From a virus (lineage: Duplodnaviria; Caudoviricetes), in the IMG/VR virus record IMGVR_UViG_3300033120_000865, positions 38,595-102,594 of that record: a stretch of DNA of 64,000 nt. One strand, written 5' to 3'. Below are positions 1 to 64,000 of the stretch, one piece after another (position 1 is the first letter of the stretch; the number at the start of each line of letters is the position of its first letter). The notes beneath the pieces were generated by a model. That model did not search any database, was not told the origin of the DNA, and saw nothing but the letters and a program-made list of their open reading frames with translations. A program made the position numbers and the translations under genes.

Positions 1-538
1 TTAATGTAGTTAAAATAGAATCTTTTTTTAAAACTAATCTTTCAAATTGCTCAAAATCTATTCTAGCACCATTAAAATCAGATGGATGAGTTTTTGCTGA
101 TGGATGATTATTTACCATACCATAGGCAGAACCAAAACTAAAAATTTGATCATCAGGATATTTAAGATCTGCCCACCATTTTTTAATAATTTCTACATTC
201 ACACTATCAATAAGTATAAACCAATTATGAGGTAATTCAATAGATGTACTTTCTTGTTTTAAAATATTCTTTTTAAATTGTTCAAATGTTATTTCTGTAT
301 AATCCTTATATTTTACATTACCTTTTACAGTACCAGAAAAGTATTTAGAGTTATCTGAATGATGCTCTGATACTAATGTATAACCTATGCTAATAATTTT
401 TCTATCTTCACAAGAAATATTTGGTTGTCTTAATCTCCATTCACTTGCTGCTTTTTGATTTTCTTCAGTAATTACCATAAACCATTTATTAGGAAATGAT
501 TTAGTAGAATTATCAACTTTATTTTTTATTATAGCCAT
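1..538 (-). CDS. hypothetical protein with two internal repeats (partial, runs off window)
   Basis: Manually read ORF from ATG at 538 (MAIIKNKVDNSTKSFPNKWF...), open to position 2; duplicated motif FPNKWF..EITFEQF / LPHNWF..RIDFEQF. Confidence 0.7.
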   Translation of the reverse strand, partial: MAIIKNKVDNSTKSFPNKWFMVITEENQKAASEWRLRQPNISCEDRKIISIGYTLVSEHHSDNSKYFSGTVKGNVKYKDYTEITFEQFKKNILKQESTSIELPHNWFILIDSVNVEIIKKWWADLKYPDDQIFSFGSAYGMVNNHPSAKTHPSDFNGARIDFEQFERLVLKKDSILTTL

Positions 539-756
539 CTTATATTATTTTTAAGATGATAAATAATAGTCATATAAGCTGTTTTTCTACCATGAGTATT
601 TACAATAATATCTCCTGAAACATTATACTCAAAAGTGTCTCCTTCTTCTATTTTTAATATAGAATCTGACACATTATTATAAGGGTTAAGATGAGCAGGA
701 ATATATTCTGTTCCTGGTAGAAACATATTTTTAACTATTTCTAATTGTGGAGCCAT
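529..756 (-). CDS. hypothetical protein
   Basis: 75-aa ORF tightly packed in minus-strand gene string. Confidence 0.6.
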   Translation of the reverse strand: MAPQLEIVKNMFLPGTEYIPAHLNPYNNVSDSILKIEEGDTFEYNVSGDIIVNTHGRKTAYMTIIYHLKNNIRWL

Positions 757-760
757 AATA

Positions 761-1105
761 TTATTTTGATTTAAGTTTTTCTATTTTTCTTATAGCTATT
801 TGTTTAGCTATTGGTTCATAAGTTCTTAAAACGATATAATGCATCATAGATGTAATACCCATAATACAAAATATTGTTAATATAAAGTTCATTGCTTGCC
901 AATCACAAAAATCATAACTATAATCTACTATAAATAGTAGAATAATAGTTATATAATGACCAAGGCAATAAGGACAATGTATCAACTCTTCCAATTTAGA
1001 ATGAAGAGTTGATACATATTCTCTTAAGAATTTAAAAATACTTGTTACTGTAATAGTAAATGATACACTACATACAATAAATGATAATAATAATAATTTT
1101 TCCAT
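761..1105 (-). CDS. membrane protein, DUF1360-like
   Basis: Three hydrophobic segments with central CPYCLG motif. Confidence 0.55.
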   Translation of the reverse strand: MEKLLLLSFIVCSVSFTITVTSIFKFLREYVSTLHSKLEELIHCPYCLGHYITIILLFIVDYSYDFCDWQAMNFILTIFCIMGITSMMHYIVLRTYEPIAKQIAIRKIEKLKSK

Positions 1106-1278
1106 TATATTACTATATCACCATCTTCATAATCTTCAGCCATATCACCATCTTTTAAAAGAGAGTCAATAGGAACTTTTCTTAATAAAGTAATTTCATC
1201 ACAACCACAACCACAACATGATGTATATTGTAATTTTACTTCTCTGTAATCTTTTTCTTCTTCTTTAGCTAATGCCAT
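1105..1278 (-). CDS. small acidic Cys-cluster protein (57 aa)
   Basis: Manually read: MALAKEEEKDYREVKLQYTSCCGCGCDEITLLRKVP...; its TAA overlaps the next ATG at 1105. Confidence 0.6.
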   Translation of the reverse strand: MALAKEEEKDYREVKLQYTSCCGCGCDEITLLRKVPIDSLLKDGDMAEDYEDGDIVI

Positions 1279-1350
1279 AATTAAATTTATTTAATTAATA
1301 ATAAAATGGAATATTTAATATTCTCATTATAATAAGTTTGATTAACATTT

Positions 1351-1572: not shown

Positions 1573-1583
1573 ATATAATATGT

Positions 1584-4861: not shown

Positions 4862-4918
4862 GGCTGGAGAATTTAGTTGTTAGTATAAAGAGTGGGGGGT
4901 AGTTCCCCTCTAAGGATT

Positions 4919-4939
4919 GGTGGGGGTCTTTATGTGGGG
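4919..4939 (-). promoter_or_regulatory. G-rich repeated motif, putative early promoter, copy 3 (degenerate)
   Basis: ggtgggggtctttatgtgggg matches copy 1 at 14/21 positions. Confidence 0.35.
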
Positions 4940-4996
4940 TGGTTCACACTCCTATTATTTCTCACTAAAAATTTTTTCCTAGAAAATTTTAGACAT

Positions 4997-5023
4997 AAAA
5001 AAACTCTCATAAGATTGAGAGTT
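4997..5023 (-). terminator. intrinsic terminator
   Basis: aactctca-taagat-tgagagtt hairpin with minus-strand U tract. Confidence 0.6.
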
Positions 5024-8386: not shown

Positions 8387-10543
8387 ATGAGTCAAATAAA
8401 TTCAATAAGAAATCCAGAAGGTATATGGATAAATAGTCAAGCATTTAGAGAGGAAGGTAATAAATTCAAAAAACATGGATATTATATTGCTGACCCTTGG
8501 GGTTCACCTGCTTGGTATGATTACTGGACAGAACAAAGAGGTAGATGTATTAATGGTTACTCAGTAGGAGGGGCAAAAATAACAGGAGAACATTATTTTT
8601 ATTTAAATTTTACACCTATTCAAAAGGTAGATAATATTAATGGAAATAGAGCAGATAAGATAGAGGGTTTTCCTGACTTTTGGGATGGAGATTATAATTA
8701 TTTCTGGTCAAGAGAGATAGCAAAGAATGGTATTGTTAGAGCATTAGGGTTAGAGGCAGAATTTGAAGAAGAGTTTAGAATTAGTGTAAAAACACTTCCA
8801 GAAGCAGAGGCTCAGAAAAAGATTTTACAAAAATTATTTGATGGGTTGCAACTTGAAGTTAAGATTGAAGTTGATTTTCTTGGTGGTGGATATAATTTGA
8901 TTGTTGGTAAATCAAGAAGAAAAGGTTATTCACTTAAAAATCAAGCTATTGCAGCTAACAATTATCAAACAATACCTAAAAGTTATACAGCCTTTGGAGC
9001 TTATGAGAAGAGATTTTTATTTCCTGGTGCTATCTTTTCTTATACAATGGACACAATTAACTTTGTTAATACCAATACAGCATGGGCAATGCCCTCAGAT
9101 GTATTAAAAAAAGCAGACCATATTAAGTCTAGTTATATTGAGTATAAGAATGGTATTAAATTAGAGAGTGGTTTTAAATCAGAAATACAGGCAGTTACAT
9201 TTAAGGATAACCCTGATGCTTTAAGGGGTAAGAATGCGAAAGATATTTTCTTCGAGGAATCAGGAGCATTTGGTACACCAGGATTATTGAAATCTTCGTA
9301 TGCTGCTTCTCAGGACTGTGTAATGGCAGGAGCTATTAAAACAGGAATGATTACAATCTTTGGAACATCTGGAGATATGGAAGGTGGTACTTATGATTAT
9401 GCTGATATGTTCTCAAGACCAGAAGCATTTGATTTAATGCCTTTTGTAAATATATGGGATGAAGATAGTTTGAAAACTAAAGTAGGATTCTTTCACCCTA
9501 TTAACTGGAATATGGAAGGGTTTTATGATGAGCAAGGTAACTCAAATAAAAAAGCAGCAAAAGATTTAGAATTAGCACATAGAGCAAAATTAATTAAAAA
9601 TGGGGCTACTTCAACAGAGTTACAACAAAGAATGCAAGAGAAACCTCTTGGTCCAGCAGAAGCATTTGCAGCAGTGTCAAGTAATACTTTTCCAGTAGTA
9701 GAATTAAAACAACAATTACAAAAAGTAAAAGCAAATGGATTACAATTTATAAAAGGAACTCCAGTTGATTTATTGATGGAAGATGGTAAGATAATAGCAA
9801 AACCAATTCTTAATTCTAGTAAAGAACCAATTACAAGTTATCATCATATACCAACTAATAAAAGAGGATGTCCTGTTATTTATGAATATCCAGTAAATAA
9901 TGCTCCTTCAGGTTTATATAAGATTGGATATGACCCCATAAGACAGGAAGAAGGAACTTCATTAGCTTCAATATGTGTATATAAAAGTTTTCATGTTGGT
10001 ACTGCTTATCATAGTATTTTAGTTGCTGAATATATTGGAAGATATGAAGACCCAGATGATATTGATAGAATAGCAGAGATGTTTGCTGATTTATATAATA
10101 CTAAAATAATGTATGAGAATGAAGTTACTGGAGTTAAGAATTATTTTAGAAGAATTAAAAGGTTAGGTTTACTAGCATTACAACCTGATTCTGTAATTTC
10201 TAAAAATGTGAAACATAGTAAGGTAAATAGGGTCTATGGGTGTCATATGAATGTGCAACTTAAAGATGCTGGAGAAAGATATGTTAAGTCATGGTTACTA
10301 ACAGTATTAGATTATGATGAAGAAGGAAATCCTATTAGAGTTATTGATAGAATATATTCAATAAGACTACTTGAAGAATTAATCTCATATAATAGAAAAG
10401 GTAATTTTGACTTAGTTTCTTCTCTATTTATGTGTATGTTTCAAGTACAAGAAGAAGTCTTAGGTAAAGAGTATGATGAGAAAAAAGAAAGTAAAAATGC
10501 AAAATTATTATTAGAAATGATAAATGATATGTACAAGAAGTAA
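8387..10543 (+). CDS. terL: terminase large subunit
   Basis: KSRRKGYS Walker A, DIFFEESG Walker B, FGTSG motif C, RNase H-like GYDP...YENE...NFDLVS. Confidence 0.93.
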   Translation: MSQINSIRNPEGIWINSQAFREEGNKFKKHGYYIADPWGSPAWYDYWTEQRGRCINGYSVGGAKITGEHYFYLNFTPIQKVDNINGNRADKIEGFPDFWDGDYNYFWSREIAKNGIVRALGLEAEFEEEFRISVKTLPEAEAQKKILQKLFDGLQLEVKIEVDFLGGGYNLIVGKSRRKGYSLKNQAIAANNYQTIPKSYTAFGAYEKRFLFPGAIFSYTMDTINFVNTNTAWAMPSDVLKKADHIKSSYIEYKNGIKLESGFKSEIQAVTFKDNPDALRGKNAKDIFFEESGAFGTPGLLKSSYAASQDCVMAGAIKTGMITIFGTSGDMEGGTYDYADMFSRPEAFDLMPFVNIWDEDSLKTKVGFFHPINWNMEGFYDEQGNSNKKAAKDLELAHRAKLIKNGATSTELQQRMQEKPLGPAEAFAAVSSNTFPVVELKQQLQKVKANGLQFIKGTPVDLLMEDGKIIAKPILNSSKEPITSYHHIPTNKRGCPVIYEYPVNNAPSGLYKIGYDPIRQEEGTSLASICVYKSFHVGTAYHSILVAEYIGRYEDPDDIDRIAEMFADLYNTKIMYENEVTGVKNYFRRIKRLGLLALQPDSVISKNVKHSKVNRVYGCHMNVQLKDAGERYVKSWLLTVLDYDEEGNPIRVIDRIYSIRLLEELISYNRKGNFDLVSSLFMCMFQVQEEVLGKEYDEKKESKNAKLLLEMINDMYKK

Positions 10544-10600: not shown

Positions 10601-13051
10601 ATGCCTACAATAAACCAAAATCAAAATCAAAGATTAAGTTATGCAGCAAAAAATGCTGATAATAAACAATGGTATAAGAATCAAGCAAATATGATTGATA
10701 ATCAACATCATTTAAATAATTATAATACTTATCATACTGATAATGTATCTGATTTTAAAAGAATGAAAGTTAATTATGATTTATTTAATAATATACTTGA
10801 TTTATCTGATTTTGAATATGTTTGTAAACCATTTGGTGCAGAAGCTGGAGAATTACCTGCAAAGATGATTAATAGAGATATTGTTTCTGGTAAAATTAAA
10901 GCTATGCTTGGTATGGAAATGAAAAGACCTTTTTCATGGAATGTTATAGCTACAAATCCAGAAGCAACTACTAGAAAAGAACAAGAAGAGTTTGGAAGAA
11001 TAAGAGATTATGTTATTTCAGAAACTCTTAAACCAATTAGAATGCAAATTGAGCAACAAAAGGCTCAAGAAACTCAAGGAAGAGAATTAACTCCAGATGA
11101 AATACAAAAAATTCAACAAGAAATTGAAGAAGAATTACAAGCACAAACTCCAGAGGAAGTAAAGAAATATATGCAAAGAGACCATCAAGACCCATCAGAG
11201 GTAATGTCTCAGCAACTACTTGAATATTTAATTCAAAAATGTGATGTTAAAAGAAAATTTAATAATGCACTAAAGCATGGATTATTATCTGCTAAAGGTA
11301 TTATGTATGTTGGTATATTAAATGGAGAACCAGAAACTTGGAATACAAATTCAATGAGATTCAACTATGATAAATCACCTGATTTACAATTTGTTGAAGA
11401 TGGAGAATTTGCAAGTTGTGAATATCCTATGACACCTTCAGAGATTGTTAGATTCTTTGGTGATGAGTTAAAGCAAGATGAGATTGATAGAATTTATAAA
11501 TCTTGGGGTGGACCAAATAGAGCAAAGATAATTGATAGTGATTTATTTAATATTGAGGAGACTGTTAGAAACCACAATAATAATAGTTCAGTAATGATGG
11601 TTCATACTGTATGGAAATCATTAAGAAAGATAGGATTCTTAAAGTATAAAGATTTTAAGACTGGTAGCACTGAAGAAATGATTGTAGATGAAAACTACAA
11701 ATTAAATAAAGATACAGGAGACCTTTCTATTCAATGGGAATGGATTCCAGAAGCTTATGAGACATGGAAAGTTAAAACAGTAGAACCTATCTACTTAAAA
11801 ATGCAACCCATTCCAGGGCAATTTAAAGATATTGATAATTTATATTATTGTAAACTTCCTTATTATGGAATAATTTATGATAATATGAACTCACAAGAAA
11901 CTTCATTAATGGATAGATTAAAAGTTTATCAATATTATTATAATATTGTAATGTATAGACTTGAATTATTACTAGCTTCTGATAAAGGAAAAAAAGTGTT
12001 AATGAATATTAATATGATTCCAGACTCAGCAGGTATTAATATTAAGCAATGGCAGTACTTTATAGAGTCAACCCCTTATATGTGGTATGACCCAAGTGAA
12101 GAAGGTGCTCAATATGCTGATGCTAATACAGTTGCAAAAGTTATTGATTTATCTATGGTATCTGATATTCAGAAATATATTGAAATTGCTGAATATCTTA
12201 GAAATCAATGTGGTAGAAGTGTTGGTATTAGTGATGCTGTAGAAGGTCAAATTGGACCAAATGATAGTGTTGGTGGTACAAGACAGAATCTTATACAATC
12301 TTCACATATTCTTGAACCTTATTTTGAATTACATAGTTATTTAAAAAGAAATGTATTACAAGCTTTAATTGAGACTGCTAAGGTTGCTTACTCAGGAACT
12401 AAAAAGAAAAAATTAACTTATTTTCTTGATGACATGTCTAAAAAAATTATTGATTTAGATATAGGTTTAATTAATGACTCTACATTAGGATTGTTTGTTT
12501 CTAATTCAGCTAAAGCAGAAGAAGCTAAAGATTTAATAAGACAACTTGCCCATGCAGCTTTACAAAATCAAAAAGTAGAACTATCTGATGTTATTTCAAT
12601 AATTAGACAAGAGTCAATAATTGAAGCAGAAGAAACTCTTAAGGTTGCAGAAGAAAAAAGAAATGCATTTGAATCTTCACAAACTCAAGCAACAATAAAA
12701 GCAAATGCAGAAGAAAAAGAAAAAGATAGAGAATTTGAGAGAGAAAAATGGGAACATGAAAAAGATATTGTTATTGTTAAAGAAGAAGAGAAAAGAGAGA
12801 CTGAAGTTATTAAAGGTGCTCTGGTTGGAGCTTCATTTAACCCAGACCAAGATGCAGATAATGATGGGGAAAATGATTTTGTTGAAATTGCTAAACATGG
12901 TTTAGATGCTGAAATTAAAAGACAAAATGTTCAATTACAAAAAGATAAATTTGAACATCAAAAAAATATTGATTCTAAAAAATTAAAACAGAATGATAAG
13001 AAATTGAGTATTGATGAAAAGAAATTAAATCAAAAGAAGTCTAGTTCTTAA
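10601..13051 (+). CDS. portal protein
   Basis: 816 aa directly after TerL; crAss-like portal features (SLMDRLK.YQY.YN, GISDAVEGQI, coiled-coil C terminus). Confidence 0.85.
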   Translation: MPTINQNQNQRLSYAAKNADNKQWYKNQANMIDNQHHLNNYNTYHTDNVSDFKRMKVNYDLFNNILDLSDFEYVCKPFGAEAGELPAKMINRDIVSGKIKAMLGMEMKRPFSWNVIATNPEATTRKEQEEFGRIRDYVISETLKPIRMQIEQQKAQETQGRELTPDEIQKIQQEIEEELQAQTPEEVKKYMQRDHQDPSEVMSQQLLEYLIQKCDVKRKFNNALKHGLLSAKGIMYVGILNGEPETWNTNSMRFNYDKSPDLQFVEDGEFASCEYPMTPSEIVRFFGDELKQDEIDRIYKSWGGPNRAKIIDSDLFNIEETVRNHNNNSSVMMVHTVWKSLRKIGFLKYKDFKTGSTEEMIVDENYKLNKDTGDLSIQWEWIPEAYETWKVKTVEPIYLKMQPIPGQFKDIDNLYYCKLPYYGIIYDNMNSQETSLMDRLKVYQYYYNIVMYRLELLLASDKGKKVLMNINMIPDSAGINIKQWQYFIESTPYMWYDPSEEGAQYADANTVAKVIDLSMVSDIQKYIEIAEYLRNQCGRSVGISDAVEGQIGPNDSVGGTRQNLIQSSHILEPYFELHSYLKRNVLQALIETAKVAYSGTKKKKLTYFLDDMSKKIIDLDIGLINDSTLGLFVSNSAKAEEAKDLIRQLAHAALQNQKVELSDVISIIRQESIIEAEETLKVAEEKRNAFESSQTQATIKANAEEKEKDREFEREKWEHEKDIVIVKEEEKRETEVIKGALVGASFNPDQDADNDGENDFVEIAKHGLDAEIKRQNVQLQKDKFEHQKNIDSKKLKQNDKKLSIDEKKLNQKKSSS

Positions 13052-14295: not shown

Positions 14296-15774
14296 ATGGC
14301 AATGACAATTAATAAATTGCAAGTAAGACAAGCAAAATTTGATTCTACTAGAATGACTGACTTAAATCATTGGAGTAAGAATCTGGCTATCAAGCCAACT
14401 GTTTTTGAAGCACCACAGAGAGCTTTGTTCTCTTCAAAAACAAATAGTATAAATTTATCAAGTGGAAATATCCTTGAAGGTATTTTTGGTTTAGGTAAGA
14501 CTAAATATATTGATGATTTAACTTGGTCATGGAAAATGAATGTAAAAGGATATAGACCTATTACAATTCTTGAAAACAGAACTGCTGGTTCAACACCAGG
14601 AAAATATAGAGGTAAAATCAAAGTCTTAGTGGATGTTGATTTAGCTGCTATTGGTGAATCTTGGGGTCCAGGTTCTTCTGACAAATCTCAAGTGGTAACT
14701 GTTGTAGATAAAAGAAAAGATGGTAGAGGATATGAATATACTTTACAAACTTACACTGAAGGTGCAGAGCACTTTATTAAACCAACTTATCTTGAGCCAG
14801 GAACAAAATGGACAAGAATGTACACTATGAGAGGTGAGGCTGCTGAGTCAGGTGGTCATACAGAAGGGTACACTCAGGTTGAATACAAAAATTCATTAGT
14901 GAAACTAAGAAAAGAATTTAAAGTAACAGACTTTGGTGCTCAAGCTGTTTTGGATATTGCTTTCCAAGATGAAAATGGTAAAGTATATAGAGCTTGGATG
15001 GATATGCAAGAAGCTCAATATCATATGGCAATGAATAAAGAGATGGCTATACATGGAATGTATAGTAGATTGGGAGACCAACCTCTTATTGACCCAGATT
15101 CAGGTTATCCAATTAATCCTGGTGCAGGTATGGAGCAACAAATTGAATTTGGTGGAAACAATGAAAGATATACAACTTTAAGTGCAGAATTAATTGAAGC
15201 ATTCTTTGATAGAATTGTTTATTCAAGAATTAGTCCTGGTGATTTAGGAGATGTAATTGGATTGTCTGGACACTATGGTATGAAAGAATTTGCAAAATCT
15301 TTAGATATTTGGGCAGGTGGTAAAGCTATTGTTAGAAATAGTCAAGATTTTGTTAAAAATGATGCAAGTGGTGTACATAATAACTCATTAAGAGTAGGTT
15401 ATCAATTCACTCATTATGATTTACCTAATGGTGGTAGTTTCAAATTAATTCATAATCCATTAAATGATGATAAATCTATCCATAGAGATATTGACCCATT
15501 AACAGGTTATCCTTTACAATCACAAAGAATTACAATTCTTGATGTAACTGGAGGAAATGGGCAATCAATTAATGAAAGAGATAATATTTGTTTAGTTAGA
15601 AAAAACAAAGTTTATGGTACAACTTTAATTGAAGGTAGAGTAGGACCAGGTGGTGAGATTTCTAAAAATCCTAAACACTCTGGGGATTATTACAGAGTAG
15701 ATATTTCTGATTCAGTAGGTGTTGAAATTAAAGACCCAACTGTAACAGGAGAATTAATTAAAACAGTAAACTAA
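14296..15774 (+). CDS. major capsid protein
   Basis: 492 aa, crAss-like MCP position and size; GAGMEQQI, GYQFTHY.LPNGG. Confidence 0.85.
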   Translation: MAMTINKLQVRQAKFDSTRMTDLNHWSKNLAIKPTVFEAPQRALFSSKTNSINLSSGNILEGIFGLGKTKYIDDLTWSWKMNVKGYRPITILENRTAGSTPGKYRGKIKVLVDVDLAAIGESWGPGSSDKSQVVTVVDKRKDGRGYEYTLQTYTEGAEHFIKPTYLEPGTKWTRMYTMRGEAAESGGHTEGYTQVEYKNSLVKLRKEFKVTDFGAQAVLDIAFQDENGKVYRAWMDMQEAQYHMAMNKEMAIHGMYSRLGDQPLIDPDSGYPINPGAGMEQQIEFGGNNERYTTLSAELIEAFFDRIVYSRISPGDLGDVIGLSGHYGMKEFAKSLDIWAGGKAIVRNSQDFVKNDASGVHNNSLRVGYQFTHYDLPNGGSFKLIHNPLNDDKSIHRDIDPLTGYPLQSQRITILDVTGGNGQSINERDNICLVRKNKVYGTTLIEGRVGPGGEISKNPKHSGDYYRVDISDSVGVEIKDPTVTGELIKTVN

Positions 15775-45400: not shown

Positions 45401-48400
45401 TCTAAAATTACCAGGATTCTCATCTCCTGTAGCATCTCAAGAAGGATTTACTTTTACAGATGATTTAAGTAATAAAACAGGAATTATTTTTACAGATAGT
45501 TTTGATGGTGAATTAAAAGCAACTCATAATTCTGATAGTAGTTTAAAATCTGCTCAAGTATTAGTGGCTTCTAAATTTAGAGTTAAAAAGAAAAATGAAG
45601 ATACAGGTAAATATACAGATGAATTATTAGATTTGACTCAATATACAAAAGTAAATGAAGATGGAAAAACTGTATTAGATATAGATAGAATTAATCCAGA
45701 TTTATTACAAATGTTTTCTTTTAGAATCCCAACCTCAGCTCACCAATCAGGTGCTTTAATTGAGATTGTTGGTTTTTTACCTCATAGCTCTGGAGATTTA
45801 ATGATTGTACCAAAAGACCATACTACTCAATTAGGAGAAGATTATGATATTGATACAAGATATGTTTATTCACAAAATTATAGAATAGATAGTAAAAATA
45901 ATGTAAGAAAAATTGATGCAGAATATATCAATAGAAGAATTGATATGTTAGATGAAAATTTAAAATCAGAACAAGAGACTGAAAAACAAATAGATGAAAT
46001 ATTTAATTTGTTTGATGCTATAAAAAATAATGAAGAGATTCAAAATATATTTGCTAATGAAAGAACAAGTCAAGAACAAAAAGTTCAAATTTTAAAAGAT
46101 AAATTAAATCATATGTTAATTGAGAATCAAATAGTTGATGTATATAAATCAATCTATTCTTCAACTAATAATAAAGTTCAAAAAATGATTGGAGCTACTT
46201 TATCTACTAAATTTGCTGAAGATACTGCTGAAGCTATTGATAGTAAATTAAACAGTCAAAAAGATGAAAGTAATTTTTCAATATTTGATGATGCTCATCA
46301 GAAATCAATACTTAAGTTAGGAGCTTCTGGTAAATTAGGAATTGGTGTACACTCTAACTGGGTTGTATTAAATTCTTTGTTTCAACAAATGGAAATAAAA
46401 CCTAAATTGGTTAGTGGATATAATGCAAAAATAGGAAAAGAAATACCATTTAACATGACTATTGGTAATTTTACTTCTTATGGTAACTTAGGAGAAATAA
46501 ATGGATTAGAACCTAATAGAAATATTAAAGGATTTATTCCAAGAACTTTAGCTGTTATTAATATGGAGTCTCAAAACTCTGCTACTGATAATCAGAAATT
46601 GCAGATTATGGGTAGAAGAAATGAGAATAAATATACTATTAATGTATTTGCTTTAATGTCTAATCTTGGATTTGATAAAGATATAGTAAATGGAAATGAA
46701 TTATCATTACCATCTTTATTTATCTCTCAACCAATTATTAGAAGATATGTGCAATTAAAAGAACAATATGATTCTATTATGTCTGATTATCAAGAAAATG
46801 TTGATGAAAAAATAAAAGGACAATTAGTAGAGGAATTTGGAGAGGGTGTGGATTTTGTTAATGATAAAGCTTTTGGTTTAAGAATGAATTTTGACCAAAT
46901 GAAAGGAATAGAGAAAACTGAATTAACTTCACAAAAATTATATGATAGTTTATTAGTAGGTCCAAATGCTCAACAATGGGCTGTATATGAAAAGTTTATG
47001 GATTTATCAGCACATGCTATGAATATTAATAAAGTGCAACAACTTGCAAATATTGATAGTGATGGATTAGGTATATCATTTTTTAATACAATTAATAAAA
47101 AAGATTCATTGTTGTTACAAATGACTTCTAATAATTTAAATATAGAAGGTATTGAAGGTTTATTTGGTAAACAAGAAGTTATTAGTAATGATGATGAGAA
47201 TGCTCAAATAGAATTAATTAATGAAGGTTATATCAAAGTAGAAACACAAGATGTTTATAGTGTATTTGTAAAACCTACATCACCTTTAAATGGAAAATTA
47301 ATAAGTTCTATTGCTTCTGGTTACAATTTATGGAAAAATGTATTACCATTTGAAGATGAATTTATTGATGAACAAATTACTAATATTATTGATATTACAG
47401 GAAAGACTCCTGATACTAAAAATGGATTAGAATTAAAATATAAAATAGTTTCTGAAATGAAAGATTTTATATATTCTTATTCAAATCTTGGTATTTTTGA
47501 TAAAGGCACTGATGAAGAAAGAAAAAGTTTATTTATAGACACTGATACTAATGAATCATTAGCATCTTATCTTAATAATCTTAAAAAATCTGGTCATAAA
47601 TTATTTAATGAACCATTTTTTAAAGATTTAGAATTTGTAATTAACAAAAACAATGATGCTTCATTAGTTAAATATACAACTAATGACAGAACTAATTTTA
47701 ATAAGAACTCAGTTTATAATACATTTAGTGTATTAAATGAATCAAAACAATCATTACCAGAATATAATGGCAAAGAATATAGTTTTGAATTATTAGCAAA
47801 AGACTTAACAAAATATAGTTTGCTTGCTAACCAAGAAAATGGAGCAATTGGATTTAGAAATTATATTCCTTTATCTATATTAAGTAAATATAAAGTGAGT
47901 GACAATTTAAGAAGATATTCTGGAGTTGGTAAAAATAGTAGTCATAATTTATTATTAAATGGTAATTTTAAAGGATTGATGAATATTATAGGAGCTTATC
48001 AAATTAATGCAGATAATACAATTGATGTGAATCAAGGTTCTACTAAAGATATTCAAAGTAATGTTGATGTTATTAATACTAAGTATGGTACATCATCTTT
48101 AGTTTATGATAAAAATAATAGTAGAATAATTGTAAATACAGATTTATCTAATTTTAAAAGTATTTTTATTAGACAGTTCTTTCAACATAATCCATCAGAA
48201 GCTAAAAAGTTCAATTGGAATAATAAAAAAGATTGGCTTAAACAAGGTAGTACTTCTAAATTAGAAAATCTTGAATGGTTTGAAGTTTCAAAAGAATTAC
48301 CTGAATATATATCTATTAGAGATTCTAAAAATAGTATGTTCTTATTATTTGAAAAAGATATAAATGGAATTTATAGAAAAGTAAATACATTAGGTGGATT

Positions 48401-49490
48401 TGGATTTAATGAATATTCTCCTTTTGTGAATAATCAACAATCATTATTAGATGTAAATGTAAAAACAAATATTATAAGTACTCAACCAATTTCTAAAACT
48501 GTCAATATTAGTGATGATTTTGGAATATCAAATGGAGTATCTTATTTATTAGAAACTATTATTAGTGATAATTCTAAATTTAAAGATGTAGCTAAATTAA
48601 TATTACCTTATATTAATGATGTAAAAATTGAAGCTAAAGATTTGAAAGGAATGGCTAATGGTATTTATGTTCCTCTTCAACAAGGTGGAAATATTAATAC
48701 TAAAGTGGGAGATTTAAATAGAGGTACAGTTTATATTTCACAAGAACTTATTGATAGTGGAAATAAAGAGAAGATAAACTATGCAATTATGGAAGAATTA
48801 GTTCATGCATTGACTGTTGATACTGTTGATAAATATGTTAATACAAGAGAGACTTATCTTAATGAAAATGGTGAAACAAATGTTCAATATCTAAATGATA
48901 ATCCACCAACTTTTATTATAAAATTAGTGTCTCTATTTAAAGCAGGTTCTAGTCATATATTAAATAAATATGATAAATCATCTGATATTAAAGATTCAAT
49001 TGGTTTAATAAATGAACAAAAAGCAATATGGAACAATGATACTGAAAGTAAATTCTATACTAATGAAAATACAGAAGATAATGATTTAAAAGTAGATACT
49101 TATAGAACATTAAATTTAGGAGAGTTTATAGCAGGAGTAATGTTATCTGATAAATTTAGAAGTGAGATGGATAAAGTGGAATTTAAAAGTTCTGGTAAAT
49201 CAATCTTATCACAATTTGCAAGTATTATTACAAAAATTATAAATTCTTTATCTCCTGAAGCTGTTAAAGATTCTGTAACTGAACATACATTTGATGCAGT
49301 AATGTCATTATTAAATAATATGGAAGAAGAAATTAGTCCAGTAAACAAGTCTGGTTTTAATGAAACTGAAGCTGATATTAAAGCTCAAGAATTATTAAAT
49401 AATAATCCTGAGAATGATGTAAAAAATGAGAATAGTATTGATTTACAACCAATGAATTTAAATGAAGTATTAAAAATTAAAACCTGCTAA
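36462..49490 (+). CDS. virion-packaged DNA-dependent RNA polymerase polyprotein
   Basis: 4342 aa; TDAQEY, FRIPTSAHQS and catalytic-type GEDYDIDT (45840-45854) resembling the crAss-like DFDID motif; C-terminal EELVH zincin-like region. Confidence 0.85.
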   Translation: MSKKRYSDPTYQNVVNKNYTGNVDETGVNANKVITNILQGEDNKTNSISHPEGWDDLLIQADNQEQKAIQEKADNAKIIEELGKEQQHFDLAKQNKTQESWYSGIVNFFDAFEDRNTLAGYTNENGKWYKKESESGSFFGKQLHKEVPFEEVQNLIDKQANKMTTSGAYQAGVGIDNVLNKAWEDGVVNGIKGLGSLITRGVTGNWDNVNDAQIKSLWNRTKYYGANTLDLFNDAITSADAGLEKEAEDPNSPFSFLMSNKEQDVRNSKYDKEYKNIQVEGQKSLDTRFEEEKKRRASGDKLFIDKIYDMSGVAEDNEYRNQQTLMKQTISERALELENRKKKSFSNVDDVINPGTFKYVDDSKGINMDLPLEMLGGDDGKSKSVWDVKKLVIDASGKPVLDEKNSPIYADKYSFTEKLAKSNWDVMSDAYYLQDDFAQGAGTALGFVIGGKGTNALVEGVTEGIGKVANVAAKGFNLENKLFNYTNKILSKTSQVTEPFGKTINTVDNIAFKKAVNVVNDKVSRAINTTAQSYIMTDSESETIGTQVQKTVLDEQIDKYANININGIVNDLKQNGKFSSDSTLFLQAKMQAETLRKKWAEENPKLFNEVLLQAQLAKEQARGINNINFINNITSAGLFVKGKSFARNLIDNPFSKKALMKSAWTLSHEMVQEGLIEEGLINGFAQKAGEETGRMKFYDTSDFMKNDVGSADFAENVFAGALLGGLQTGGTKAVNVVSEYEHFKDQKKTVNELSSIGSLDIKENIKKVIEYSLDKNNNEVVAQKMNDLLAEGKEAEANTLADTLLLNKSVKAANTGTTEVLNKSLQELMKNEDLTPEDKQELQKAITFNNKIADTYDAHIQYNNKKDIIENRGNKELLENYKQEIIQSLSDIEMDYNNNLERQIRKEIGPESTYASDNYNEIFENKKQSSKLPSDHRASVELANAKKQIEELQNTQDELDDKYDYLVSDKGQQEYAVKINEFKKSNIIKSVNANNINNVKEELKNNNQLTSEINSQLNQSVEEKIVRDNTEVVAPVINPIEKFVTPNNDKNIKEDIKNVPEVIKDKAKQFTLISQEPLFDDSPNLGDPSLDSKSNEATADNNDSLSLQPIGLDENIPSHNNIVKKYAGVMQAMNENISNDFGTNLSGKEMFGLFASQVGFDVAEKHFNFFKKAFQQTINDDNTNWDNLYNKYFDKMKSFSFNETNIEVPVTVNEVKQQDADTNSIIQEDTKPIGYNQDNSPIKYLGRKIAVAVNKIPFLGVKYRAITNELDGSVTYVDDNEGELNTEGMSNLDIVLNPDLLVAGKKFTLEIPEDWKTRVVSNWNKNDVGVLVQNTTTMEEWMQSKNIAEGSQEWFDKVPMDMIIDGINIGSGVHDVSWWNSRNVADFIDATINEEKITIDQAKQKQEAVIKEGRNITSNIRKNVFQGNNEMIITDREEGHTLSNTDGKLNSIAEANPEAQIAIFSPQGFIINKGDNGNEYSKLNIINLNSITDKGHVFMLSRIGTENKDGKNVPTYVAHKLHTNHNQDNLNELAKSRQRMYDAADILNKLGKHINPTSEEINWAESVKNQVRVMTGVSIDNISSEGTNIQYIGLGKLKQLYPLPAKDKSGLMLLPQLSNVSNKKLPIIHGDGSVTNYKSKVGEGYKAMLMDNLHTQKKFHTIQDQEGNNINILDVQPRIKFDLINKEKDVIKQEKKEEVKKAKEQIRTEAQIVTTPISEITHGQRQRVVEHLFHNILSSVDISKDFTNQDILRNIKDSFENHLSDIKGTKEYDYLSENKDSILGLGSFSNDINTVKSELESFLNQEFLDENEDVETQLNDEGQFEKNNNKASFENDVRTSLSTKLKMFFAGIEKDSSKSVTDEFAGLSSYYGLDEVIGGLQDMLVNVSNSPVAFTNKIQNQIDKNPDEFGFLQSVLNKFESAPIEIQKEILFRLNQTKNEMAFVMYSKSKSGNYTLMAYDANSKNPNIKTKLEWQENFKQSNLIENYGDNYKVKQDKAGQLINQYNSWKGKYENVSNKEYVDWLKHFGVLVSEKTIQDYKDGLVEGNINFPGVFAINGGVFGTLYNNLNHIITKQNNDAEIVFKYRNENKNDKGAFNLLTNNNNGFLKTMIDVQVSNTFTLASSMYIGGKTINAFSQPNYTTEQLRKIKDETNPLNQNLRDTAFSKNSLLLNLIQNPKIKNALNIGYVSLQSLKQQGQKAYQDSEIVDLSSQDYDLLLQGFFENEGAYFKNQELEDKGISLRETKMTFPTLSDSSQMFVFNTVGLDLKKGNFTFEDDKIKMNQEVVDVLYSQLVKPDLDRMEAFLKSTGNTNIQGLDLGSQLFTMIPSLNTLQVELNDNKVKLLTVLHTAIKNGNNIDDIIEDYKHLINNKLQQLISSSTESKLRIEDNKLAGSWVVNGFVKNAENESSDIDISFLDSKYLTSRGTNVKLESARIAAYDFTINYYINQANIQMLFAGDISNYVQDKQASKFNLDSNGRPDLTKPKVSVDVSEDQLLKEQQIYTDLIKATSVNMSKRLKELISPGNRLAESSNEKYIQLMVNDVEESSNTLESLVKMWYSELYQENKKDIQKLKELEKNIRKENKEGKSAKVSEGEYNAIKKSLQNKFPDIADYFNITATDAQEYTSWNEHLNTLLNQGRIQQNTYDSITSKLKSQSDEGLNINNKLNKDEKKVIFQVIKPLHAGMYFEDLKDSNGEVLSKIQRYVYVKTSSFPLLPELTYGLELDNLRKNVEQLENKTGKKVRVSYQSGNKVGAVKNAINMSELYSEYTPDLESKIMASSAILDRENFSIQQDKPFKTDKNIKANKRDEINRGTQFEKILLGNGINQISEKIFPNKFDSSLLESLGINDTDGKISGKDLYSIYTNLYTQEQNILRNQLYNSLGLNNNGDWVNNIETLEQIKNALNKRLSNQQDKEILELSYIVPEEENGKLVNHYYTKKQMEEKGLKPTRAEFNIPIWMSPNSRKFESVLNSIVNNKLVNLKLPGFSSPVASQEGFTFTDDLSNKTGIIFTDSFDGELKATHNSDSSLKSAQVLVASKFRVKKKNEDTGKYTDELLDLTQYTKVNEDGKTVLDIDRINPDLLQMFSFRIPTSAHQSGALIEIVGFLPHSSGDLMIVPKDHTTQLGEDYDIDTRYVYSQNYRIDSKNNVRKIDAEYINRRIDMLDENLKSEQETEKQIDEIFNLFDAIKNNEEIQNIFANERTSQEQKVQILKDKLNHMLIENQIVDVYKSIYSSTNNKVQKMIGATLSTKFAEDTAEAIDSKLNSQKDESNFSIFDDAHQKSILKLGASGKLGIGVHSNWVVLNSLFQQMEIKPKLVSGYNAKIGKEIPFNMTIGNFTSYGNLGEINGLEPNRNIKGFIPRTLAVINMESQNSATDNQKLQIMGRRNENKYTINVFALMSNLGFDKDIVNGNELSLPSLFISQPIIRRYVQLKEQYDSIMSDYQENVDEKIKGQLVEEFGEGVDFVNDKAFGLRMNFDQMKGIEKTELTSQKLYDSLLVGPNAQQWAVYEKFMDLSAHAMNINKVQQLANIDSDGLGISFFNTINKKDSLLLQMTSNNLNIEGIEGLFGKQEVISNDDENAQIELINEGYIKVETQDVYSVFVKPTSPLNGKLISSIASGYNLWKNVLPFEDEFIDEQITNIIDITGKTPDTKNGLELKYKIVSEMKDFIYSYSNLGIFDKGTDEERKSLFIDTDTNESLASYLNNLKKSGHKLFNEPFFKDLEFVINKNNDASLVKYTTNDRTNFNKNSVYNTFSVLNESKQSLPEYNGKEYSFELLAKDLTKYSLLANQENGAIGFRNYIPLSILSKYKVSDNLRRYSGVGKNSSHNLLLNGNFKGLMNIIGAYQINADNTIDVNQGSTKDIQSNVDVINTKYGTSSLVYDKNNSRIIVNTDLSNFKSIFIRQFFQHNPSEAKKFNWNNKKDWLKQGSTSKLENLEWFEVSKELPEYISIRDSKNSMFLLFEKDINGIYRKVNTLGGFGFNEYSPFVNNQQSLLDVNVKTNIISTQPISKTVNISDDFGISNGVSYLLETIISDNSKFKDVAKLILPYINDVKIEAKDLKGMANGIYVPLQQGGNINTKVGDLNRGTVYISQELIDSGNKEKINYAIMEELVHALTVDTVDKYVNTRETYLNENGETNVQYLNDNPPTFIIKLVSLFKAGSSHILNKYDKSSDIKDSIGLINEQKAIWNNDTESKFYTNENTEDNDLKVDTYRTLNLGEFIAGVMLSDKFRSEMDKVEFKSSGKSILSQFASIITKIINSLSPEAVKDSVTEHTFDAVMSLLNNMEEEISPVNKSGFNETEADIKAQELLNNNPENDVKNENSIDLQPMNLNEVLKIKTC

Positions 49491-54242: not shown

Positions 54243-54370
54243 ACTTAACATAAAGTGAAAATCAAACTATTATGTTTCAACATTACTATTTTAGTATTAA
54301 AAATATGGTTTTACGATACCAATATTTAATATACTATTCAAGATTTATTCACCCATCTTTAAATAATAAT

Positions 54371-54444
54371 TGGGGTGTTGCAGGGATTTGAACCCTATCC
54401 TCCTGATTCACAGTCAGGCACTTTACCAATTAAGCTAACAACAC
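54371..54444 (-). tRNA. tRNA-His(GTG), CCA encoded
   Basis: Anticodon arm CCTGA-CTGTGAA-TCAGG; T loop TTCAAAT. Confidence 0.9.
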
Positions 54445-54446
54445 AG

Positions 54447-54519
54447 TGAAAGTACTTAGATTTGAACTAATGACACTCTGCTCTTCAAACAGATGCTCTA
54501 CCAACTGAGCTATACTTTC
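54447..54519 (-). tRNA. tRNA-Phe(GAA)
   Basis: GAAAGTA/TACTTTC acceptor; TCTGT-TTGAAGA-GCAGA. Confidence 0.88.
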
Positions 54520-54562
54520 TTCTTCAAGTTAGTTAAAGTGCAACTTGATAGTAATCACTATG

Positions 54563-54633
54563 TAAACTTATCAGGACTCGAACCTAAAATAACTGCACCA
54601 AAAACAGTTGTGTTACCATTACACCATAAGTTT
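54563..54633 (-). tRNA. tRNA-Gln(TTG)
   Basis: AAACTTA/TAAGTTT acceptor; ACTGT-TTTTGGT-GCAGT; GTTCGAG. Confidence 0.85.
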
Positions 54634-54699
54634 TTTCATTGTGGGTATAACATATTGATACACACTTAATCCTTAATCAAATTGTTATTAAGGCAATTG

Positions 54700-54788
54700 C
54701 AGAGAGTACAGGATTTGAACCTGTGAACCCCTTTTCAGAAGTTGCCTGATTAGCAGTCAGGTGGATTAAACCACTCTCCCAACTCTCT
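54700..54788 (-). tRNA. tRNA-Ser(GCT)
   Basis: CCTGA-CTGCTAA-TCAGG, long variable arm, discriminator G. Confidence 0.9.
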
Positions 54789-54794
54789 ATTATG

Positions 54795-54868
54795 TGGACC
54801 TCAAAGGACTTGAACCTTTAACCTTTTCATTATGAGTGAATTGCTCTAACCAATTGAGCTAAAGGTCC
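54795..54868 (-). tRNA. tRNA-CAT, most likely Ile2 (lysidine, reads ATA); elongator Met not excluded
   Basis: GGACCTTTAGCTCAATTGGTTAGAGC body resembling Ile2 tRNAs; loop CTCATAA. Confidence 0.8.
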
Positions 54869-54875
54869 AAATTTG

Positions 54876-54947
54876 CTGGATAGATAGGACTCGAACCTAT
54901 ACTCTACTGATTAACAGTCAGTTGCTTCACCATTAAGCTACTATCCA
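54876..54947 (-). tRNA. tRNA-Asn(GTT)
   Basis: ACTGA-CTGTTAA-TCAGT; discriminator G. Confidence 0.9.
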
Positions 54948-54953
54948 ATATTG

Positions 54954-55026
54954 TGGAGAAGATGGGATTTGAACCCACATAATCTTCATTGCAAATGAAG
55001 TGCATAACCAATCATGCTCCAACCCC
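54954..55026 (-). tRNA. tRNA-Ala(TGC)
   Basis: CTTCA-TTTGCAA-TGAAG; G3:U70 pair present; two U-U mismatches in the acceptor stem. Confidence 0.82.
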
Positions 55027-55213: not shown

Positions 55214-57037
<1,824 letters not shown>

Positions 57038-59252: not shown

Positions 59253-59253
59253 A

Positions 59254-61118: not shown

Positions 61119-61145
61119 AAAAGAGAGGATTTAATTATCCTCTCT
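61119..61145 (-). terminator. intrinsic terminator-like hairpin
   Basis: agagaggat-ttaatt-atcctctct with short minus-strand U tract. Confidence 0.5.
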
Positions 61146-61370
61146 ATCTGCAAATTTGTCAATTTGTTCATTAGTAAATGTGTTAGAGAAATCAACAGAA
61201 TTACCATATTTATTCAATAAAGTAATAATACCTGTTTCATAGTCAATTTTAATTTGATTTCCTTTTTTATTTACATAATATTGTTTCTCACTATCAGTTT
61301 CTTTGAATTGAAACCCCATCATTGTGATATAATCTACAAATGATTTCTCTACTGAAAAAAATTTAGCCAT
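61131..61370 (-). CDS. hypothetical protein
   Basis: 79-aa ORF. Confidence 0.65.
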   Translation of the reverse strand: MAKFFSVEKSFVDYITMMGFQFKETDSEKQYYVNKKGNQIKIDYETGIITLLNKYGNSVDFSNTFTNEQIDKFADREDN

Positions 61371-61436
61371 AATAATATATAATTATATGATTAATAATAA
61401 TTTAGAAAACTCTTTGTTAATTATTGTAGTTGGATA

Positions 61437-61946
61437 TTAGTGTGTTCCACTACTACCAAACCCATTTTCTCCTCTATCAGTTACACTAATTTCTAATTCT
61501 TCTTCTGGAATTATTCTTGCTGAAATAGAAGGAACAAATTGAGCAATTCTTTCTCCTCTATCTACTTGATTTAAAAATGGTGTAGAATTATAAATAATAA
61601 CTCCACAACTACCTCTATAATCAGAATCAATAGTACCAGGAGCATTAGCAATCATTAGTCCTCTTTTTAAAGCTACTCCACTTCTTGCTCTTACTTGAAT
61701 TTCAAGTGATTGATTCATGTCAGCAAGAGTTAAACCTGTATGAAAAAGAATTCTTTCAAAAGGTCTTAATTTAATATAACCTCTTTCATTAAATCCATCT
61801 TGCATTTTTTGTAGCTTTTCTCCTGTAATTTCTGTATCACCTTTGTAAGCTTTAAGAATACTATGAGCAATTACATCAAATCCTGATGCTCCTGTTGATT
61901 CATATTTTGGTAATTTAACACCTTCTTCTAATTTAAACTTTATCAT
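61437..61946 (-). CDS. dut: trimeric dUTPase
   Basis: ASGFD, RARSG, GTIDSDYRG, ERIAQ, RGENGFGSSG. Confidence 0.95.
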   Translation of the reverse strand: MIKFKLEEGVKLPKYESTGASGFDVIAHSILKAYKGDTEITGEKLQKMQDGFNERGYIKLRPFERILFHTGLTLADMNQSLEIQVRARSGVALKRGLMIANAPGTIDSDYRGSCGVIIYNSTPFLNQVDRGERIAQFVPSISARIIPEEELEISVTDRGENGFGSSGTH

Positions 61947-62015
61947 CTTCTTTTTTTGTTTTTATATACAGACTATATATCCAACACTGTGTTCCTAAAT
62001 AGCTATACATGATTA

Positions 62016-64000
62016 TTAAAAATTAACTTCACAAGCTCCTGAACTACAAGCCATACCTGATAATTCATCTGCCTGTAAATATTTTTCAGTATAATTTATC
62101 TTGTTGAAATCTATTGGTTTGTTCTTCAAAACTCTGTTTATTTTAACCCATTTATGATATAAATGAATATCTTTCAAACAATCTGTTGCTTTAGTTAAAT
62201 TACCTTTAAAATAATTCTTTGCAAATTTCTTGATTCTAGCTACAATATCTTTCTTTACCATTACAGTAATTCTATCTCCTGTTAAAATAAAATCTCTATC
62301 AGTTACAGCAGAACATACATCCCATAAATCATCATTGAAACAATGAAGTGCATCAACTACAAGACCAGAAGCAAATATAGATGCATCTCCATATTTTTCC
62401 ACTAATTGTGTAATATTAAGAACTTCTACAAATGGAGCTTGTTTATAAGCTTTATCTCCTGTATCAGCTAAAAAAGAAAGTCCACAAAAGTATTCTTTAT
62501 TTTCAAAAATATAATCAAAAGTTTTATCCCAATCTTTTATAGAAACAGTATTACTCACATTATGAGTAACTCTTGAACTATAACCTTGCAGTTTATTTGT
62601 TCCTTCTAATACCCAATATTTATAAACAGTTTGTACTGCTTTTAGAAATTCAATTTCATCAACTTGAGATTTCACTACTGTTTCTGGTGTTTCTTCCATA
62701 GGAATAAAACAAGCATAATCTGTATTAGTTGGACTCCAGACTCCTTGCTCTAACAATTCAGAATAATTTTCATTAAGATACTTTGCCATAGGTGTATCTT
62801 TATTTAATTGAATAGTTCTGAAATAATTATGAGCATGAGCAGGATGAATACCTGAAGCTGTTTTAGCAAGCACTGAAGCATTACCAGAAGGTTTAACACA
62901 TGTAGTTCTTGCTGATTGGTTAATACCAATTAATTTTGCAATTAATTCATTTGTTTCTCTAACAATTTTTGCACCATTCATTAATACTTCTGGATTTAAT
63001 AATACATCAGGATTATTCATTATACCTGTAATAGATACTCCTAATAAAGATTCCCATCTTACTAATTCTTCAGTATCTTTTCCTAAGAAAGAAAAATCTG
63101 TATAACTAGCTTGAAAAGTTCCTATAATAGCAGCATTATGACATGCATCATAAAATTTCTCAGGTGTATCACATTTAGAACCAATAATTTCATTAAGATT
63201 ACAGAATGACCAACATGATTTTCCTGTAAATGGATTTCTTGGTATAAATCCAATTTCAACACAAGGATTACACATCATATCAATATCATCTACTAATAGT
63301 ATTCCTGGTTCACCAAATTGTTTAATAAATTCTTTATAACTATCAAGTTCTTCTTTTGTTAAAGAATTCTTTAATATTTTAGCAGAATTATTAGCTCTAG
63401 CTCTCCAAGGTGTATCAATAAACCAATTACCTGTTTTACAAGATAACATTAATTTATCATCTTTATCAAATAAAGAGATTAATGCACTTCTTCTAACTCC
63501 TCCAGATAATACAGCATCAGATAGAATACAAATAATATCATGACAATCTAATGATGTTAGGACATTATCACCATTATTAATTTTAGCATCAAGAAGTTTT
63601 TCAAGCAAATCTAATGATTTCTTTAATCCTTCTGGTCCTGGAGCTAAAAACTCTCCAGCAATTAATGCTCCTCTTTCTCTAATTAGAGAATAATCAAAAA
63701 GAACTTTTTGAGCATCTGGAGTAAAATAAGACATCATTAACATATCAATAGCTATTGCCCAGCCTTCAATACTATCTTCAACAGTATGAACAAATTTACC
63801 ATCTACCTCTCTTTTAGAAATTTGTGGTAATTGACTAACAAATCTATTTTCTACTGAAAATCCAACCCCAGCTCCATTTAGTAATACCCACATAATCTCT
63901 TTAAATACTTCTGGTCTATCAATATAAGTAACAGAACAGTTATATAATTTAGTATTATGTTTTAATATACTTTTTTCTCTAAATTGAAGATTTCTTTGTG
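62016..64000 (-). CDS. nrdJ: class II (AdoCbl-dependent) ribonucleotide reductase, 5' end outside window
   Basis: GGVRRSA, NPCVEI, CNLNEI, TTCVKPSGNAS, C-terminal CSSGACE; frame stays open upstream of 63893 (..LYNCSVTYID..). Confidence 0.88.
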   Translation of the reverse strand, partial: QRNLQFREKSILKHNTKLYNCSVTYIDRPEVFKEIMWVLLNGAGVGFSVENRFVSQLPQISKREVDGKFVHTVEDSIEGWAIAIDMLMMSYFTPDAQKVLFDYSLIRERGALIAGEFLAPGPEGLKKSLDLLEKLLDAKINNGDNVLTSLDCHDIICILSDAVLSGGVRRSALISLFDKDDKLMLSCKTGNWFIDTPWRARANNSAKILKNSLTKEELDSYKEFIKQFGEPGILLVDDIDMMCNPCVEIGFIPRNPFTGKSCWSFCNLNEIIGSKCDTPEKFYDACHNAAIIGTFQASYTDFSFLGKDTEELVRWESLLGVSITGIMNNPDVLLNPEVLMNGAKIVRETNELIAKLIGINQSARTTCVKPSGNASVLAKTASGIHPAHAHNYFRTIQLNKDTPMAKYLNENYSELLEQGVWSPTNTDYACFIPMEETPETVVKSQVDEIEFLKAVQTVYKYWVLEGTNKLQGYSSRVTHNVSNTVSIKDWDKTFDYIFENKEYFCGLSFLADTGDKAYKQAPFVEVLNITQLVEKYGDASIFASGLVVDALHCFNDDLWDVCSAVTDRDFILTGDRITVMVKKDIVARIKKFAKNYFKGNLTKATDCLKDIHLYHKWVKINRVLKNKPIDFNKINYTEKYLQADELSGMACSSGACEVNF

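Follow-up and report, generated by a model that had tools for sequence, protein, structure and literature searches.

The window analysed here is a stretch of 64,000 nucleotides, bases 38595-102594 (the right-hand 62%) of the 102,594-bp IMG/VR record IMGVR_UViG_3300033120_000865, which CheckV rates as 100% complete and which is treated as the whole genome of the window phage (G000; 26.9% G+C). It encodes a terminase large subunit (TerL), a portal protein and a major capsid protein, as well as a muzzle-like virion protein, a giant virion protein and a cluster of seven tRNA genes (Table 1), and the dinucleotide CG is almost absent from it. The phage belongs to a Crassvirales-like lineage related to FpV4 and Fipvunavirus, as its terminase, portal and capsid genes are of crAss type and follow the conserved order. 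A tblastn search with TerL matched 159 records, every one crAss-like or FpV4-like, and the closest cultured relatives are the FpV4 group of Flavobacterium psychrophilum phages (57% identity in TerL, 35% in the capsid protein). A replication module with genes for ribonucleotide reductase (RNR), ThyX, helicases, primase, uracil-DNA glycosylase (UDG) and PolA lies upstream of the window. Open reading frames (ORFs) were called with a simple longest-ORF caller.

Extent of CG loss

Only 11 CG are found in the window, against 1,138 expected from mononucleotide composition (the basis of all expected dinucleotide and word counts given here), an observed/expected ratio (o/e) of 0.010; the dinucleotide GC occurs 1,137 times (o/e 1.00). 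The whole genome has 19 CG where 1,855 are expected (o/e again 0.010; GC o/e 0.98), with CG-free runs of 23.5 and 21.5 kb. The depletion extends to all three codon phases, to intergenic DNA and to tRNA genes: 994 of the 997 arginine codons are AGA or AGG and three are CGN, codons of the form NCG number four, NNC-GNN codon junctions occur six times (330 expected), and intergenic DNA contributes six CG (114 expected). The seven tRNA genes contain two CG against 22 expected, compared with 39 against 39 in the tRNA genes of a sampled host (see below), and five of their T-loops read TTCAA and two TTCGA. The divergent promoter region at 4862-5283 (about 420 bp) has no CG at all. Codons ending in C are very rare in the coding regions of G000 (ACC 44 versus ACT 992; GGC 27 versus GGT 891), which may be due in part to avoidance of NNC-GNN junctions.

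These figures uphold an earlier note, made by reading this DNA by eye, that had located about a dozen CG sites (there are exactly 11, each where it had placed them), had estimated that composition predicts about a thousand, and had remarked on the frequency of GC, the coding of arginine by AGA and AGG, and the TTCAA T-loops of five of the seven tRNAs. The 13-kb gene that it described as a CG-free RNA polymerase indeed has no CG, and the polymerase label itself is presumptive: the 4,342-aa product has one DYDID motif (residue 3127) and gave no match in Pfam and no sequence match in the Protein Data Bank.

The residual CG are nearly all private to this genome and lie mostly in variable DNA that is not alignable between relatives. 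The four in the early region are all outside the DNA alignable to the close relatives G002 and G003, and the one in the T-loop of tRNA-Gln is the sole CG shared with a relative (G003). At the three sites clustered in the terminase gene, relatives have CA, TG and CT; the cluster may reflect a multi-base mutation event or chance, and there is no support for its acquisition by recombination with a CG-normal relative, no recombination tract being visible. All three sites fall in the conserved Walker-B region.

Table 1. Principal features and residual CG sites of the window
Feature	Position	Strand	Remarks
Four residual CG	832, 2245, 2412, 3185		Early region of small ORFs and intergenic DNA
Terminase large subunit (TerL)	8387..10543	+	phrog_6681; carries three CG
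Three CG of TerL, within 61 bp	9237, 9253, 9297	+	In GCG, TTC-GAG and TCG, respectively; private, synonymous
Portal protein	10601..13051	+	phrog_6547; CG-free
Major capsid protein	14296..15774	+	phrog_11589; PF23898 (Crass_capsid) on orthologue; CG-free
Muzzle-like virion protein, 1,777 aa	27298..32631	+	PF25731 (crAss_MUZ), phrog_15100; CG-free
Single residual CG	32815..32816	+	Codon junction in 723-aa ORF (32660-34831)
Giant virion ORF, 4,342 aa, presumed virion RNA polymerase	36462..49490	+	phrog_16227, 'virion structural protein'; 0 CG in 13 kb
Residual intergenic CG	54314..54315		Between late operon and tRNA cluster
Cluster of seven tRNA genes	54372..55026	-	Only 2 CG
Two tRNA CG	54579 (tRNA-Gln), 54892 (tRNA-Asn)	-	Both in TTCGA T-loops

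CG content of related phages, hosts and unrelated phages

CG depletion is widespread among the relatives of the window phage. Its close relatives from other metagenomes, G002, G003, G004 and G005, have CG o/e of 0.006, 0.023, 0.14 and 0.11, respectively; the whole genome of FpV4 has 0.065, the IAS virus 0.090, Bacteroides phage DAC17 0.021, and PhiCrAssBcn23, of the PhicrAss001 type, 0.025. Moderate depletion is seen in Cellulophaga phage phi14:2 (0.46) and in a p-crAssphage genome (0.54). Of 80 loci with a related terminase, 77 are CG-purged (the median o/e of the 80 being 0.067), and the purge varies in strength without steps, with o/e running from 0.006 to 0.3. The GC o/e is 0.98-1.06 in G000 and the TerL-relative loci. 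Across the 80 loci, CG o/e is correlated neither with avoidance of GATC (rho -0.06) nor with G+C (rho 0.06).

The host available for comparison is that of FpV4, represented by one F. psychrophilum genome, the type strain DSM 3660, a 182-kb sample of which has a CG o/e of 1.05. Host composition is ruled out as the cause by the difference between this value and the 0.065 of FpV4. The ratio of 0.01 in the window phage, whose relatives are mostly purged as well, is thus neither near 1 nor like that of the cultured relative's host; a value near 1, or one equal to that of the host, would have contradicted the earlier note. That all phages of these hosts are under such a pressure is likewise ruled out, by Fpv5, a phage of the same F. 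psychrophilum strain as FpV4 (1.56), and by B40-8 of B. fragilis (1.19). Fpv5 (L081, KU599880) is enriched in CG and has 139 CCGG where 27 are expected, the reverse of what is seen in the FpV4 group, which shares its host strain.

CG-normal lineages

Three of the 80 loci are CG-normal (L113, 0.93; L114, 1.14; L174, 1.15). The CG-normal lineages are represented by JGI 3300002405 contig G312J29652_10000002 and by L174. A 78-kb sequence of the L114 phage (GN) was recovered from another assembly by walking along a 98-kb JGI contig in which the proteins of L114 recur. It has 43.5% G+C, 4,422 CG (o/e 1.2) and a crAss-like gene order, its capsid protein and that of the window phage share 75% identity, and the phage is present in several independent assemblies. 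Only some 27 of its genes have detectable counterparts in the window genome, and its higher G+C suggests that it may have a different host.

Phylogenetic analysis was based on the terminase gene only, with FastTree and IQ-TREE. In the resulting trees the window genome is sister to L113 plus L114 (support 100), every surrounding lineage and outgroup is purged, and L113, L114 and L174 nest among purged lineages. An approximately unbiased test rejects the placement of L113/L114 and L174 in one clade (p 0.001, for a group chosen after the tree had been seen). The most parsimonious history would be that of a purged ancestor in whose descendants the constraint was lifted twice independently, and a constraint lifted twice would not be built into the conserved core machinery.

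The structural module of GN holds two glycosyltransferase-like genes on opposite strands (L196:615-3697), one of 551 aa with PF09612 (HtrL_YibB) and one of 455 aa matching PF11397 and phrog_24687, that have no counterpart in the window genome and may act on DNA, the virion or the host surface; these genes give no evidence either way on the release of CG. Searches with Pfam and PHROGs found no methyltransferase, hydroxymethylase or deazaguanine gene in this CG-normal sister.

Selection against CG

Substitutions were examined in a 41-kb three-way alignment of G000, G002 and G003 (81% identity). Among 4,729 lineage-specific substitutions, 8 create CG, against 356 expected under context independence; T>C at TpG was observed at 3 of 3,819 opportunities, compared with 635 of 18,549 elsewhere, and is therefore about 44 times rarer. 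At 208 arginine columns conserved with the CG-normal sister, CGN is used 54 times in the sister and never in the window genome; turning CGN into AGR takes a C>A transversion, a change that deamination does not produce. The products expected of deamination are not in excess, CA (1.13) and TG (1.11) in G000 being no higher than CT/AG (1.19). Thus, the CG deficit is actively maintained by natural selection and not by mutation bias, and the strong pressure on CG that the earlier note had proposed is accounted for neither by base composition nor by that of the host. Each new CG is slightly costly to fitness, in any coding phase and between any flanking bases, and hardly ever persists, and CG that arrive with new genes are removed over time. 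The relative fixation of new CG, approximately 2%, points by a rough parsimony estimate to a scaled selection coefficient of about 5 per CG. Such a small, additive cost per site suggests a promiscuous, inefficient hit rather than a classical restriction site. A gradient with expression level was considered and rejected: CG is scarcest in the giant late ORFs, but in FpV4 the genes for terminase, portal and capsid are purged no more thoroughly than those of core replication.

Vertebrates and Mollicutes classically owe their CpG deficit to mutational decay, in which CG is hypermutable through methylation and deamination, or through a CG-damaging enzyme, and no direct selection is involved. The low G+C of the window phage, the rarity of C in third positions and the conserved UDG gene would agree with such decay. 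However, we give it very little credence here, because these phages encode no methyltransferase (see below), arginine codons have changed by transversion, CA and TG do not exceed CT and AG, and an o/e of 0.01 requires CG to be lost about 100 times faster than it is gained. Furthermore, some relatives spare CCGG, the context in which methylation is likeliest, and both types of DNA polymerase are found among purged genomes and one of them in the CG-normal sister. The mechanism of a CpG methylase with deamination, one of those offered in the earlier note, is accordingly not supported.

Sequence contexts and restriction sites

Depletion affects each of the 16 NCGN contexts, including the frequent non-palindromic ones; these, ACGA/TCGT among them, are lost (0.02-0.12) as fully as palindromes. 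Ordinary restriction-type words are avoided also: G000 has 4 GATC against 248 expected, no GGCC against 33, and no CCGG against 33, and avoidance of these three words varies among relatives independently of CG, that of GATC spanning none to complete over the 80 loci. No 4-mer without CG is eliminated in G000 except GGCC and GATC. The most depleted CG context is GCGC, which fits the presence of an M.HhaI-like methyltransferase in F. psychrophilum.

Many ordinary restriction-modification systems with diverse CG-containing sites, met across host strains, might together amount to loss of the dinucleotide. Hundreds of methylation motifs are present in Bacteroides populations (PMC10333322), these phages avoid GATC, GGCC, CCGG and GCGC, and the host has M.HhaI-like and M.HaeIII-like methyltransferases, all of which would be expected of such a sum. 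Nevertheless, it is highly improbable as the explanation: non-palindromic contexts are lost equally, words with GC other than GGCC are undepleted (GC o/e about 1), and CG loss is near-universal in the clade and uncorrelated with the strain-variable avoidance of GATC. For the same reasons, the CG-containing restriction sites invoked in the earlier note are not supported as the cause.

The exception to uniform depletion is CCGG. In 18 loci of relatives (243 kb) this word is spared, occurring 130 times against 191 expected (o/e 0.68), with other contexts at 0.04-0.17 and the half-sites CCGN/NCGG barely spared (0.11-0.17); in 34 others (488 kb) it is absent (0 against 297), with other contexts at about 0.02-0.13. 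CCGG in this clade is therefore bimodal, either spared or zero, and its sparing is specific to the palindrome and not strand-multiplicative. The CCGG sites of sparing phages turn over like neutral sites. Host methylation of CCGG may shield the CG within it from an agent unable to act on methylated cytosine, and the total loss of CCGG is what would be expected from an HpaII-type restriction system. The sparing of the full palindrome without the half-sites argues that the agent recognises duplex DNA, and against a cause at the level of RNA; the sparing of CCGG also argues against methylation-driven decay, which would remove this word first.

A host ribonuclease or RNA sensor, or one triggered by infection, that acts on CG in transcripts in the manner of the vertebrate protein ZAP would find some support in other observations: as CG is its own reverse complement, a purge at the RNA level would look alike on both strands; transcription covers nearly all of the phage DNA; and the tRNA genes are purged. 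In addition, genes for an RNA ligase (phrog_968, 58035-59252) and a phosphoesterase (phrog_547, 59254-59739), in the region 57451-59739 (minus strand) beside the tRNA cluster, resemble the RNA-repair modules with which anticodon nucleases are countered, which may point to RNA-directed attack. These two genes are absent from G002, G003, G004, FpV4 and GN, and RNA repair is therefore not common to the other purged relatives. As the CCGG pattern carries the mark of duplex DNA and methylation, and the promoter region at 4862-5283 is also CG-free (a minor point), we regard an RNA-level cause as quite improbable.

Search for a responsible gene

No C5 (PF00145) or N4/N6 (PF01555) methyltransferase was detected in six-frame searches of G000 and G002-G005. 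A phage-encoded cytosine methyltransferase was rejected as a candidate, none being found in ten related genomes or contigs, including CCGG-sparing phages; a search for PF00145 only, in L113, L174, L117 and L172, gave no match. The genome of F. psychrophilum DSM 3660 encodes three C5 methyltransferases (one M.HhaI-like, one M.HaeIII-like and one unassigned), none of which resembles the CG-specific M.MpeI; a CpG methyltransferase of the host is what the earlier note had proposed to look for.

None of the proteins of the window genome both occurs in all of G002, G003, G004, FpV4, IAS virus, DAC17 and PhiCrAssBcn23 and is missing from GN, phi14:2 and p-crAssphage (tblastn, E<1e-3). The best local candidate, a 291-aa protein (G000:23925-24800, minus strand; L084:4925-5800), has 1,365 homologues and no Pfam domain, and its AlphaFold model is mostly beta with a helical C-terminus (pLDDT 85). 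This family is missing from the CG-normal sister, but it was rejected as the cause, being present in phi14:2 and absent from IAS virus, DAC17 and PhiCrAssBcn23. The DNA polymerase has apparently been swapped between close relatives: PolA (G000:25948-27873) is found in G000, G003 and G004, and an unrelated polymerase (phrog_1252; L193:7872-9965, FpV4 gp62) in G002, FpV4 and the CG-normal sister. Polymerase error was rejected as the cause, because both types occur in purged genomes and one also in GN.

These searches bear on a self-imposed origin of the purge, in which a phage CG nuclease or nickase would destroy host or competitor DNA, the phage's own genome being protected by its lack of CG, and loss of the enzyme would release a lineage. 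Phages and viruses offer precedents: in T4, hydroxymethylcytosine allows self to be told from non-self by DNA chemistry, and chlorella virus nucleases have sites of 2-4 bp. A phage enzyme would explain more simply why the host has normal CG without a CG methyltransferase and why unrelated phages are unpurged; the trait is confined to certain Crassvirales lineages, the sister lineage is fully released, and many giant virion and early proteins of the window phage have no assignable function. We nonetheless consider this origin unlikely, though the next most likely after a host defence nuclease, since no candidate gene was found, the graded purge (0.006-0.3) fits variable exposure better than a gene that is either on or off, and the nineteen residual sites of the genome would still be cut.

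Other features of the genomes

The window also encodes a GroEL-type chaperonin (phrog_5725) and an RNR at 55214-56821 and 62016-63893, respectively, both on the minus strand; a second RNR, of the B12 type, is encoded upstream of the window. Also upstream (G000:11339-14792, minus strand; L083) is a pair of genes for rIIA-like (765 aa) and rIIB-like (389 aa) proteins, common only to G003 and IAS virus among the compared genomes. The terminase gene is interrupted or extended in several relatives: in G004 (C1:50285-53461) it is a frame of 1,068 aa with a gap between two matching parts, and it is split into separate ORFs in Fpv1 and Fpv2 (L080, L082) and in L174 (1638-3697), which suggests inteins, introns or homing-endonuclease insertions. 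In the crAss-like phage cr115_1, the terminase gene (L088:8977-11022) has seven in-frame TAG under the standard code, which were read as Q for alignment; this looks like the stop-codon recoding that has been described for some crAss-like phages.

A possible host-side nuclease

Of the three mechanisms offered in the earlier note, a CG-sensing defence is still the best, if unproven, reading, and the agent may be encoded by host or by phage. The explanation that we favour, tentatively and at a little short of even confidence, is that a defence nuclease of the host purges CG. The host side is favoured because the purge is graded, the escaped lineages have shifted in composition, and no phage gene tracks the trait. 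The proposed agent would be a DNA-damaging activity that is met during infection of Bacteroidota hosts, acts on the double-stranded DNA of the phage and recognises unmethylated CG with little or no regard for its flanks. It might be a restriction-like nuclease, or a nuclease activated by infection; one that is active only during infection would remove the need for self-protection of the host. Phages that have no methyltransferase and already avoid GATC, GGCC, CCGG and GCGC would meet this threat by avoiding CG. The pressure would fade when a lineage leaves it, as may have happened in the two lineages in which CG has returned to 1.1-1.2, and also for CG inside CCGG where the host probably methylates that word.

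Several observations weigh against a host-side nuclease. To our knowledge, no prokaryotic nuclease has bare CG specificity, and the cost per CG looks small, unlike that of a classical restriction site. The sampled host keeps normal CG; none of its C5 methyltransferases is M.MpeI-like, that is, CG-specific (N4 enzymes were not examined), and a constitutive CG nuclease in such a host would be without evident self-protection. The evidence on hosts comes from that of FpV4. Fpv5 and B40-8, which share no such deficit, would need other protection. Finally, the sparing of CCGG could arise instead from an agent that prefers some sequences to others, together with a separate restriction system for CCGG. 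Whether Bacteroidota or their crAss-like phages possess an undescribed DNA-targeting activity on unmethylated CG, one that has stripped the dinucleotide from most of a large phage order, is a question on which we find the evidence evenly balanced.

Significance and comparison with known systems

No viruses of the human gut are more abundant than the crAss-like phages, and relatives of theirs infect fish pathogens and freshwater Flavobacteria. A force that deletes a dinucleotide from genomes of 100 kb, tRNA genes included, implies a major undescribed mechanism of immunity or takeover, and no known restriction system would have so short a recognition element. The trait is shared by cultured phages (FpV4, DAC17), close CG-normal relatives exist for comparison, and, on the CCGG pattern, CG-bearing DNA is predicted to be rescued by CpG methylation. 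Phage and host are in culture together for FpV4 with F. psychrophilum, DAC15/17 with B. thetaiotaomicron and PhicrAss001-type phages with B. intestinalis. CG content could mark the lineage and host exposure of phages in viromes, and would matter for engineering these phages and for delivering DNA into Bacteroidota. Literature searches found no paper on a CG purge in crAss-like or Flavobacterium phages.

The purge resembles the avoidance of restriction sites by non-temperate phages that lack methyltransferases (Rusinov et al. 2018, PMC6286503) in that short words are selected out of virulent double-stranded DNA phages; that study considered neither dinucleotides nor phages of Bacteroidota. It differs in that the target is a bare dinucleotide in all 16 flanks, lost far more uniformly across the clade than GATC and independently of it, and in that restriction-site avoidance leads one to expect a cognate system in the host, where no CG-cognate C5 methyltransferase is visible in F. 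psychrophilum DSM 3660. With the CpG deficit caused by deamination of 5-methylcytosine, in vertebrates and in Mollicutes that have M.SssI or M.MpeI, it shares specificity for CG and normal GC. In those systems, however, roughly 60-80% of CpG is lost, as against 99% here, and the phages have no methyltransferase and no CA/TG signature, have replaced CGN with AGR, in part spare the probably methylated CCGG, and, in the case of FpV4, have a host with normal CG.

A third comparison is with ZAP, which drives CpG suppression in vertebrate RNA viruses and HIV-1 by reading RNA, in hosts whose own genome is CpG-poor. As with ZAP, a dinucleotide appears to serve as a mark of non-self and has been removed from the viral genome by synonymous change; unlike with ZAP, the host here is CpG-normal, and the CCGG pattern points to recognition of duplex DNA.

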